Shown in pieces: positions 39,399-42,300 of a stretch of DNA of 64,000 nucleotides. The notes beneath the pieces are model-generated. The model made no database searches. It saw only the letters and a list, made by a program, of their open reading frames with translations, and was not told where the DNA came from. A program made the position numbers and the translations under genes. Within the stretch, counting starts at the first letter, position 1, and each line of letters opens with the position of its first letter. Source of the DNA: an uncultured Poribacteria bacterium (GTDB taxonomy: Bacteria > Poribacteria > WGA-4E > WGA-3G); the NCBI GenBank assembly GCA_951813565.1, contig OX638351.1:1856001-1920000 (forward strand). The letters run 5' to 3'.

Positions 39399-42300
39399 TT
39401 ATTCCTCAACCGTGTCAGCAATCGGTTCAGGCTCAGAAACCGGTTCAGGTAATTCTTCAGGTTCCGGATTATCGATTGCGTCGCGTGACACTTCAAGTTC
39501 ATGCCACTCAGAGAATCCTGTCCCAGCGGGGATGAGGCGTCCGAGGATAACGTTTTCCTTTAGACCTGTAAGCAGGTCTGTTTGTCCTTCAACAGCGGCA
39601 TCTGTGAGAACCTTGGGTGTCTGTTGGAAACTCGCTGCAGAAATGAAACTATCCGTGCTAAGTGATGCTTTACTGATACTCTGCAAGACAGGTTCACCTG
39701 TTGCGGGGGTACCGCCTTCTTGTTCGACACGTCTGTTTTCGGCGTGGAACTTGTGTCGACTGACTTCATCGTTCGCGTAGAACTTTGTGTCCCCGACAGA
39801 TAGGATGCGTATCTTTTGAAGCATCTGTCGCACAATAACTTCCACGTGCTTATCGTTAATGCTGTCAGTCGGATAGACTGCCTGAACCTCATCCACAAGG
39901 TATGCCCAAAGTGCTTCTTCACCTTCCAGAGAATGTCCATTAAGGGTAGTTCTACCAATGGTAAGAATGTCATGTGGGTTGAGGTATCCGTCCGTCAGAG
40001 GTTCTCCTGCTTTGACCCAGTCACCATCATCAACACGGCGTTTCTCGTCGGGAATAGAATATAGACGACTTTTAGTAGCCCCATCTACGATGCGGTATTG
40101 GGGTACTCCAGCTTTCTGCCCGGTGAGTTGCACATGCCCATCAATTTCAGCAATTTCAGCAGCATCTTCGCGTTTTGGACGCCGTGCTTCAAAAAGTTCC
40201 GTCACACGCGGAATCCCAGCAACAATGTCAAGGTTGGTAGTTTTTTCTTGCAATTCTGCCAACGAATGTTGTGCTTTGACACGTTGTCCATCCTTAACAG
40301 AAACTGAGTAACCAGCGGGAATAAGGTGCGACACACTCCCGCCCCCTGGGATATCAATATCGACTCGGAAGGTTTCGATTAAGCCATCCACATCAACGCC
40401 AGCATATTGTTCAAGCGCGGTGGCATATTCCCAATCTTTCAACTCTTGATCGACATTAAGCGTACAGTTCGGATGCGTTACCTTGGTCACTCGATAGGTA
40501 TTCTTTGAAGTAGAAGCCGATTCTTTTTTATAGTTAGCATCACTGAGAATATCACCTACAGCAACCTCAGCATCAGGCGCGGTAACACCCGTTACCTTAA
40601 AGACACGTTCAGTATCAAAGCCTTTGTAAAGTCGTTGGGCACGTTTATACTCAGTCTCGTCAATCTGTTGTCCAGCAGTAAACGGGCAATCATCATGATG
40701 AACAGCAAGGACGTGATACATCAGCTTTACATCAGGCAGTGGCGTATCCGTGTCTCGATGTTGTTTCACAAGTGCTTTGTAGTCCGATTCTGTCATAGTT
40801 TCTTTATCTTCATCCCCTTCAGGGGCATGTAGATAAAGTTTCTCAAAGTCGAACCCCTTATAATTTCGCCGGTATCGATTAGACTCAGATTGCGTGATAA
40901 GTTCACCAACAGCAACGGGAAAGTCAGCGTGGTGTGAGGCTGCAACGCGGTAGAGTCGTTCAACCTCAAACGCTCCTTCATTCTTAGTGACATCAACCTC
41001 AAAACCTGGATATGCCTTCAACACTGCTTTTTTCTCATTTTCGGTGAGCAGTGTTTCAGGTTCCAACTTACAATCGGGATGATGCACAGCAGTAATACGG
41101 TATTTGAGTCGTTCGGCAGTAAACCCGCTGAATTTATTCCGAAGTGCCTCTAATTTATCGGCTTCAATTAGTTCGTCAGGTTTTAGCGGGCATTCCGGGT
41201 GCATTACGTGTTTAACTCGATACAACTCCGCTGATGGGCGTTGCACTTCAAATGCTTTATACGTTTCCTGTGCACGTCGGAATTCTACAGCACTCAATTC
41301 TTGATCCACAGCTAAATCAATACCGTCACTGACCTCTGTTAAGGTATACACCGGTTCATCAAGTTCCAAGTGGTACTGGCTCTCTTCTTCCGGCGAGAGT
41401 AGTTTTCCTTCCTTAAACGGACAACTCGGATGTGTAACCTTCTGAATTTGATACATCATTTCGGCTTTCACACTGTCCTGCTTTCGTAAATATTCACTTT
41501 CGGTAAGGATCGTCCCTTTTTTCGTTTGGTACACCCATTCACCATCAAACGGGCGGATCTCAGAACGCCATGTTTCCGCCTCGCTTTCTGTCAGCAATGT
41601 GCCTTCCTTCAGTGAAGTATCCGCATGTTTTACACTTTTCACACGATAGTGTGGTTCAGAGCATCGGAACGGTGAGAATTTGTGAAAACAGATATTATAT
41701 TCCTGTTCCGTTAGATATTGCCCCTCTTGCAATGAAAAGCCTGATTCAGTGTTCGCTTCAATGATATCTGGACGTTTAACTCCAATAACTTGACAGGCGA
41801 TAGGTTCAACCTCAAACCCAGGAAAACGTTCACGGTTTTCCTCATGCTGTTTCTCGGTGAGGAGTTCATCCGGTTGCAGTTTGCATTCAGGGTGTTCTAC
41901 GGTTTTAACCTTATATTTTGGTTGATCGAGGTGTTCCGCGACCTGTTGAACTATCCATAATCCGCTTTCTTCACGAACGGTACGTCCCGGAATGAAATCA
42001 CGAAACCGCACTTTCCCGGTAGCCTTCGCCAGAATCTTACGTGCGAGTCGTTCACTCATATCTTCAACCACACCGCCTGTATGGAAAGTACGCATTGTCA
42101 ACTGCGTCCCAGGTTCGCCGATAGATTGCGCTGCGATGATGCCGATAGCCTCTCCAACATTGGCAAGTTGTCCCGATGTTAAATCAGCGCCATAGCAGGT
42201 CGCACAGGTGCCTTTATCGGCCTCGCAGGTAAGTATAGATCTGACACGAACGCTGGGAACCTCAGCATCCTCAATAATTTGTGCTATCTGTGGTGTAATC

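Follow-up and report, generated by a model that had tools for sequence, protein, structure and literature searches.

A trigger-loop insertion of RNA polymerase β′ built from clamp-toe-like units in one family of Poribacteria

The trigger loop of the RNA polymerase (RNAP) β′ subunit carries a long, repeat-filled insertion in an uncultured member of the Poribacteria, marine bacteria of which many live in sponges. The window analyzed here is a stretch of 64,000 nt (contig OX638351.1 of assembly GCA_951813565.1, forward-strand positions 1,856,001–1,920,000). Its rpoC gene occupies positions 39399–45017 on the minus strand, as do all rpoC features given below, and encodes a β′ subunit of ~1872 aa with five Rpb1 Pfam domains. 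The open reading frame (ORF) finder placed the start at a TTG codon at 45059 (ORF 39399–45059, minus strand), and amino acid numbering follows this start; translation more likely begins at Met15, an ATG at 45017 with an AGGAG Shine–Dalgarno sequence upstream, and homologues that are 14 aa shorter ahead of the NADFDGD motif are consistent with it. This catalytic motif is found in one ORF alone across the 5.43-Mb single-contig genome (95% complete), and rpoC is a single-copy essential gene in the host. The named relatives of the locus all belong to Candidatus Poribacteria (17/17 loci).

The two halves of the trigger loop, TMRTFHTGG (42072–42098, aa 988–996) and the segment beginning with DIVAG (40182–40229, aa 1611–1626), are separated by 614 residues, or ~70 kDa, close to the ~600 residues estimated in a first-pass annotation made from the DNA sequence alone. 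The insertion thus lies between the two trigger-loop halves of β′ (aa 996 to 1611), the site of SI3/β′i6. Most of it, 511 of the 614 residues, consists of 13 tandem units (aa 1048–1558, window 40386–41918), within 2 nt of the limits first proposed (40385–41920), and the observation of a repeat-filled trigger-loop insertion is confirmed. The first-pass count of ~13 repeats over ~510 residues was recovered; the common length of ~40 aa was not, as the units range from 25 to 47 aa, with eleven clear and two (R4 and R10) reduced. From the N-terminal side, the units are R1 (41805–41918, with both His and Cys), R2 (41658–41798, with a 9-aa insertion in the same loop that holds nuclease domains in some relatives), R3 (41538–41651), R4 (41460–41534, 25 aa), R5 (41352–41456, with a short helix), R6 (41241–41351), R7 (41112–41225), R8 (40992–41105), R9 (40842–40955), R10 (40722–40841, divergent), R11 (40608–40721), R12 (40500–40604) and R13 (40386–40499). 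The three repeats originally quoted as examples correspond to R1, R8 and R11; their H-P-x-C-type form does recur along the array, although both His and Cys are present in just 6 of the 13 units.

Profiles were required to see the repeats, which are invisible to self-BLAST of the insert. A profile of 245 non-redundant units, taken from the trigger-loop insertion site only, detected 11 of the 13 units at independent E-values (iE) of 5e-15 to 0.004 among 26,460 six-frame ORFs. R4 (iE 0.5 only with the 13-unit profile) and R10, which is part of the training set of that smaller profile, fell below detection by the 245-unit profile; both show a strand and a helix in the AlphaFold model of the insert, while R1, R3, R5–R7, R9 and R11–R13 are defined by profile and model together. 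The model (22 sequences; predicted local distance difference test, pLDDT, 79.5; predicted template modeling score, pTM, 0.45) contains 13 predicted units of strand–loop–short strand–helix–strand topology, mostly at pLDDT 80–90. The insert is acidic, with 96 Asp and Glu against 67 Lys and Arg. The array has no model in Pfam or NCBIfam, the ESM Atlas gave no usable match for units R6–R9, and Foldseek with the whole 627-aa model returned nothing at E ≤ 0.001. No DNA repeat marks the ends of the array, and Pfam and NCBIfam scans found no nuclease trace within it. DNA similarity between units is so low (63–71% over 41 nt, 4 copies) that the array is taken to be old. An assembly artefact is disfavored because the array is present in 107 family genomes; sequencing runs gave neutral evidence (9 listed with at least half of the query words, with no RNA run among those listed, and no contig placed from four runs).

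The first-pass annotation had also placed the array between two halves of an SBHM-like motif, and this arrangement was borne out. The N-terminal half (ancestral SBHMb; 41952–42035, aa 1009–1036) and the C-terminal half (40251–40370, aa 1564–1603) flank the array and fold as one SBHM in the model: using VIA-align, the insert ends matched the tail of cyanobacterial SI3 (8h02) at Z 8.5 with a root-mean-square deviation (rmsd) of 2.6 over 73 aligned residues, and 2auk at Z 7.2 (rmsd 3.5, 76 aligned). In E. coli, SI3 (β′i6) has 188 aa and is a tandem pair of SBHMs within the trigger loop (PDB 2AUK, 4IQZ). Five proteins from outside the family have inserts of 206–382 aa, and one of them (G026) aligns end to end with E. 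coli 931–1152. Both window halves match the second SBHM (E. coli 1020–1129) in four of these five SI3s, at 10–28 bits versus at most 8.5 for the first. It follows that the family lost SBHMa and that the array entered SBHMb at one of its loops. Of the two E. coli domains, the one facing the secondary channel is described as SBHMa, and the one facing downstream DNA as SBHMb (PMC2939025). By structure match and by SBHMb orthology the insertion thus contains an SI3 SBHM; a published rule of two or more SBHM repeats per SI3 (10.1101/2021.01.27.428476) does not extend to it, since one split SBHM is found here. As judged from sequence and predicted structure, the array is an insertion at the SI3 site with the SI3 SBHM, yet built from a different module than known SI3s. 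Separately, a protein of family f4 (L043, G027) has a 382-aa SI3 with an independent ~170-aa insertion within SBHMb.

The units are homologous to the clamp toe of β′, and we consider this origin of the arm that they form, as well as its structure, highly probable. This clamp segment has been named β′-bD2 and its paralogue β′-bD7, both being sLC domains (CATH 3.30.60.280; PMC11515920); residues 143–180 of E. coli β′ are called the clamp toe in structural papers (PMC7822876, PMC9378689). In the window, the native clamp toe lies at 44439–44543 (aa 173–207), matching the segment near 44430–44545 to which the first-pass annotation had likened the repeats; β′-bD7 lies at 39690–39815 (aa 1749–1790) and has the same fold. 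A hidden Markov model built from the 13 units did reach the clamp segment of the same protein, which was its top match outside the training set (iE 0.0049, the next being 2.7, among 26,460 genome ORFs). Against the PDB, β′ clamp toes filled the top 4 of 177,635 sequences (E 0.009–0.065), and a 95-unit profile returned the identical top 4 (E 0.0045–0.43). The latter profile gave exactly one match per genome in 11/11 and 28/29 genomes of two sister families, with E down to 3e-12, and in both genomes inspected (G040 and G026) this match was the clamp toe (33 and 36 bits). Repeat-profile scores in 40 proteins had a median of 23 bits (4–44) for clamp copies and of −1 (maximum 3.5) for bD7 copies; since these scores favor the clamp copies, the clamp toe and not bD7 is identified as the donor of the repeat unit. 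The clamp copies closest to the units belong to sister families and other genera (24–44 bits); that of the host itself has drifted away and scores 12 bits when the whole protein is scanned. The proposed likeness to the protein's own clamp segment therefore holds as homology, although that copy is not the nearest one.

The predicted fold agrees with this assignment. Unit R8 was modeled alone (pLDDT 78), and all Foldseek matches listed for this model were β′ chains (TMq 0.59–0.80). Using VIA-align, sLC copies were the top 4 of 48,161 chains, with rmsd 1.4–2.1 over 38–40 aligned residues: cyanobacterial β′ 1135–1177 (Z 5.0, rmsd 1.5, 38 aligned), M. tuberculosis 1163–1205 (Z 4.9, rmsd 1.4, 38 aligned), the split clamp copy of M. 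tuberculosis (Z 3.8, rmsd 1.9, 40 aligned, 30% identity) and a plastid enzyme (Z 3.4). The units can thus be placed among sLC domains by sequence homology to β′-bD2 and, for the predicted unit, by fold (rmsd 1.4–1.9 Å over 38–40 residues, with Z low since the domain is small). Units and clamp toe also have in common an insertion-prone loop after the first strand; in M. tuberculosis, β′i1 splits the clamp toe at this same loop. Unlike the usual two sLC copies per β′, the copies described here occur in the trigger loop, in long arrays and in β. Extra sLC insertions were reported, as stated in a 2024 survey, only in a handful of proteins from DST and Firmicutes, within bD2, bD4, bD5 and bD7 (PMC11515920).

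To place the array in the phylum, 176 genomes were considered: the host, 111 others of its family and 64 from ten other families. The array was detected in 107 of the 111 family genomes and in none of the 64 others; the four family genomes without a match are 81–90% complete, and sister families carry an ordinary SI3 of 206–216 aa. The distance from TMRT to GIP is 627–629 aa in all 22 intact congeners at 66–86% identity. The order of units is the same in genus g12 (13/13) and largely collinear in g11 and g13, with block duplications of units in some species, and particular unit positions have their own invariant surface residues among congeners. The array is under purifying selection, with a ratio of nonsynonymous to synonymous substitution rates (dN/dS) of 0.07–0.13 in the 8 pairs tested of 21; for the core, 4 of 16 values (L002–L004 downstream, L008 upstream) were dropped where indels broke the ungapped comparison. 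One locus broken within the array (L023, G011) was excluded from the congener alignment; there, rpoC is split into two frames inside the array (C40:5186–5192) in a 910-contig assembly, probably through an assembly error.

The secondary-channel factors Gre and DksA were then considered. The Gre N-terminal domain (PF03449) was found in 0 of the 176 genomes (control 9/14), and TIGR01462 found nothing in the host genome, where NusG was detected alongside. GreA C-terminal matches occurred in 6/176 genomes, in proteins of 1300–1450 aa; three of the six were scanned, proved to be TPR–GreAB-C–PIN proteins and were rejected as Gre factors. The DksA/TraR zinc finger (PF01258), a search that would miss zinc-free DksA paralogues, was found in 9/176 genomes: not in the host, in 1/111 of its family, in 0/40 of two sister families, and in deeper families. 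Because the absence of Gre is phylum-wide and the arm is restricted to one family, the loss of Gre is older than the arm. Cyanobacteria are reported to lack Gre and DksA, with Si3 shielding their binding site; the authors propose a trade-off in which Si3 may have hastened Gre loss (PMC10895346, PMC7026648). In the window, the codon right after the first trigger-loop half (42069–42071, minus strand) encodes Val where E. coli has A940; in cyanobacteria this substitution increases intrinsic RNA cleavage, and the A940-to-Val change was reported to raise it most (PMC7026648). Val940 was rejected as a family-wide compensation for Gre loss, being present in only 40/70 close and 0/50 readable distant sequences.

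In relatives, the module occurs at further sites. The window's array site is free of the extra module copies and nucleases seen there, the host genome has none of these extras, and its rpoB (45145–49170, minus strand, 1341 aa) is without repeat units; other genera of the family carry arrays in RpoB. RpoB of L070–L073 and L075–L084 (genera g9, g10, g11 and g13) has 3–5 units in the lobe region, and in g13 also a second unit group and a degenerate nuclease-like domain ahead of the GDK motif. Units follow ETPY in β-uD3 of two RpoB proteins (G001, L031:9692–15001; G109, L085:2742–7406). In β′, units are nested within the BEAN domain of L033 (G019), L035 (G020), L085 (G109) and L086 (G106), in insertions of 400–600 aa that comprise orphan first strands, a nuclease domain, and then clamp-toe halves and whole units; they are also nested in the clamp toe itself (P0101, P0103) and in bD7 (P0131). 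Foreign domains enter at one place, after a unit's first strand. The BEAN-site nuclease is MTES_1575 in G019, G106 and G109. Further nuclease domains lie in the loop of unit R2 (P0075, P0105, P0116, L084) and in R8 (P0100, P0111); they are of differing kinds, with catalytic-looking motifs that by eye are intact in some and decayed in others. Domains in G020 (BEAN site), G001 (β-uD3), P0105 and P0116 were labeled HNH-like from motifs judged by eye, Pfam being silent at E ≤ 0.1. In the host genome, a 1612-aa ORF (4192454–4197289) has an MTES_1575-like domain 38–39% identical to those inserted in relatives' RpoC, and this sequence likeness makes it a possible member of the donor family of those inserts.

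Outside RNAP, an RpoB-type cassette is fused to a membrane coiled-coil TPR protein (L100:577–3129, G150). In P0132, P0134 and P0147, as in G150, the N-terminus was read by eye as a nested clamp-toe cassette with HSDR_N-like domains, and paralogues of these cassette–TPR proteins elsewhere have a kinase-like N-terminus instead (also by eye). P0143 (2029 aa), a divergent RpoC, repeats the clamp toe together with the following helices about eight times in tandem at the clamp site, apparently an independent amplification outside Poribacteria. Three other candidate carriers of the module (P0144, P0152 and P0154) were rejected as chance repeat matches. Insertions of 340–430 aa ahead of the rim-helix region were also seen in β′ of L032 (G006), L034 (G010) and L087 (G110); in G006 and G010 they consist of helical repeats of low complexity that bear no relation to the clamp toe.

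Considering these patterns, we hypothesize that the clamp-toe (sLC) module of β′ was duplicated into the SBHMb loop in the ancestor of one Poribacteria family and was then amplified to ~13 units, with SBHMa being lost. The earlier loss of secondary-channel factors may have freed space for the arm. Because it is attached to both trigger-loop halves, the arm would either move with, or be insulated from, each cycle of loop folding. It would run over the enzyme's outer surface close to the rim of the secondary channel, the jaw and the lobe. Working like cyanobacterial Si3 and E. coli SI3, it could bias trigger-loop folding (pausing, intrinsic RNA cleavage) and/or brace the promoter complex via protein–protein contacts. 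Both modes have precedents: E. coli SI3 is stated to have to shift in every addition cycle (10.1101/2021.01.27.428476), and Si3 is described as bracing sigma while being partly insulated from the trigger loop (PMC10120043). As a whole, the best explanation is that the trigger loop bears a folded, acidic arm of multiple beads derived from the clamp toe, and we assign it a probability of roughly 0.55. For its regulatory part, in which the arm would tune pausing or open-complex stability, the odds appear about even. The first-pass interpretation overall is partly supported.

Several points weigh against this explanation. The E-values to PDB clamp toes are weak one by one, those of the single-unit Foldseek search exceed 0.2, and the two top VIA-align rows are the bD7 paralogue and not the clamp copy. 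The sigma70 non-conserved region (PF04546), the partner of the clamp toe in E. coli, was not found in the host genome. At a pTM of 0.45, the relative arrangement of the beads is not fixed by the model. The array diverges faster than the core, both within the genus (63–84% vs 86–93% identity) and across genera (33–39% vs 68–69%), and the TMRT-to-GIP length of 626–1372 aa across the family (118 measurable of 121 homologues) suits loose constraint. Sister families without Gre and DksA keep an ordinary SI3, so factor loss does not demand an arm, and Val940 has the uneven distribution given above. Finally, deletion of cyanobacterial Si3 is reported to have left catalysis without marked change (PMC10895346).

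Some of these observations would suit tolerated cargo: the clamp toe would have been amplified without gaining any regulatory job, and the array would persist only since deletions or misfolding in an essential trigger loop are harmful. Under that explanation, the fast divergence, the large length variation, the insertion of clamp-toe modules and unrelated helical repeats at many surface sites in single species, and the largely unchanged catalysis after full Si3 deletion (PMC10895346) would all be expected; the retention of the array in nearly the whole family with the four misses all in genomes 81–90% complete, a length constant within 2 aa over 22 congeners, the collinear unit order across genera and the position-specific invariant surface residues argue against it, and we regard it as possible though doubtful. 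The same insertion-prone module could also be a clamp-toe stalk that brought nuclease domains into RNAP genes as a mobile in-frame cassette, of which the window's array would be a nuclease-free remnant. PF18741 in 10 of 120 RpoC homologues among those listed (6/14 scanned), nucleases that split a unit behind its first strand at R2, R8, the β′ BEAN site and bD7, and the related cassettes in RpoB and in the membrane TPR protein of G150 are in line with such a history. The 13-unit array, however, is family-wide and collinear, whereas the nucleases are sporadic and of differing kinds, which points to later capture, and the window's array has neither a nuclease trace nor a DNA repeat at its ends; we find this cassette origin rather improbable.

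A different role was suggested by the first-pass annotation, namely that the recurrent H-P-x-C may bind metal; the array could then control the trigger loop by zinc binding or as a set of thiol switches. Of 95 non-redundant units (a set biased toward high-scoring units), 83 have the His and 60 the Cys; both are kept in R1, R7, R8, R11 and R13 of all or nearly all of the 22 intact congeners, and B-box domains are weakly similar in fold (Z at most 3.2). However, His and Cys co-occur no better than chance (52/31/8/4, odds ratio 0.84, Fisher p = 1.0), and 30 of the 35 Cys replacements are Leu, Phe, Ile or Val. Each unit offers two candidate ligands, whereas a zinc repeat would have three or four Cys/His ligands conserved together at each site. 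Because the clamp toes of the order (single copies in sister families) already carry Cys where His is absent, Cys is taken as inherited; in the clamp toes of the PDB, the places of H-P-x-C are occupied by D-P and T-P-L. His and Cys are therefore read as structural, metal binding appears unlikely from these residue patterns, and an array working as a metal or redox switch is, in our estimate, very unlikely. Least credible of all would be an ordinary large SI3 whose units are degenerate SBHM or BEAN/BBM2 domains, even though SBHMs are stated to be normal at this site (10.1101/2021.01.27.428476) and a faint second repeat-profile match (2 bits) falls on the β′ BEAN segment. As the first-pass annotation had held, the units are not SBHMs: each has a helix of 9–10 residues and half the SBHM size, as opposed to the helix-free, open four-stranded sheet of ~70–80 aa, bearing a motif that resembles a GD box, seen in SBHM/HABAS domains; their best fold matches are sLC copies, and SBHMs are matched by the two insert ends only. 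BEAN/BBM2 domains consist of two helix–strand–strand brackets versus the single helix of a unit, and the BEAN of RNAP was not among the top VIA-align rows, MoeA appearing at Z 2.2 only.

Besides the clamp toe itself, the arm can be compared with three known systems. Like E. coli SI3, it occupies the same site, its host domain is orthologous to SBHMb and its surface is acidic (PMC2939025); unlike it, SBHMa is absent, clamp-toe units make up most of the insert, and no Gre or DksA was detected in the organism. The Si3 of cyanobacteria and plastids (645 aa, nested SBHMs) resembles the arm in site, size, insertion into a split SBHM and occurrence in a lineage without Gre, whereas here the building block is sLC and not SBHM, β′ is unsplit, family members reach ~1360 aa, and the loss of Gre is phylum-wide and predates the arm. 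The β-i4 arrays, described as one to six tandem BEAN/BBM2 modules (PMC2939025), likewise represent a native RNAP module amplified in tandem at a surface site; module and site are different ones, and in relatives the clamp-toe arrays adjoin or sit inside BEAN domains. No published description of the Poribacteria array was found in a search that did not cover the earlier surveys of Lane and Darst (2010) and Iyer (2004), and Poribacteria are absent from the tables of PMC11515920. According to a 2021 preprint, the trigger-loop insertions known so far all consist of SBHM repeats (10.1101/2021.01.27.428476); in a 2024 paper, the Si3 of cyanobacteria, at 645 aa, is named as the largest one known (PMC10895346), and the 2024 survey says that domain insertion into RNAP largely stopped after early bacterial evolution (PMC11515920). 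The Poribacteria family contradicts all three, with a different building block, insertions of up to ~1360 aa and species-level gains. It provides an RNAP insertion whose donor can be traced and, among lineages lacking Gre, a second giant arm of independent origin. The order of events is readable, with Gre loss phylum-wide, the arm in one family and sister families as natural controls, and the trade-off between Si3 and Gre/DksA thus becomes directly testable.

A bolder possibility, which we consider unlikely, is that the clamp toe is a working, still-spreading graft adapter by which RNAP gains arms and, in some species, tethered active nucleases, with the fixed 13-unit arm substituting for the missing secondary-channel factors. 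If so, RNAP would be under reconstruction today at the trigger loop, lobe, flap base, β′ BEAN site and bD7, and the clamp-toe loop would accept nested copies and foreign nucleases in frame, with the cassette also used outside RNAP.

Three further features of the window were recorded. Upstream of rpoBC (45145–50118), the usual nusG and ribosomal-protein genes are not present, ~950 nt there being without a long ORF; the nusG of the host genome lies at 64.5 kb, away from rpoBC. A four-Cys micro-insertion (44868–44930, minus strand) precedes the usual zinc finger close to the N-terminus of RpoC and is possibly an extra zinc site, a similar motif being present in the out-family protein P0153. On the plus strand, a 281-aa ORF (34685–35530) has a weak match to MntA-type nucleotidyltransferases in its first half (E 2.5e-6, below the cut-off), fused to a second domain.

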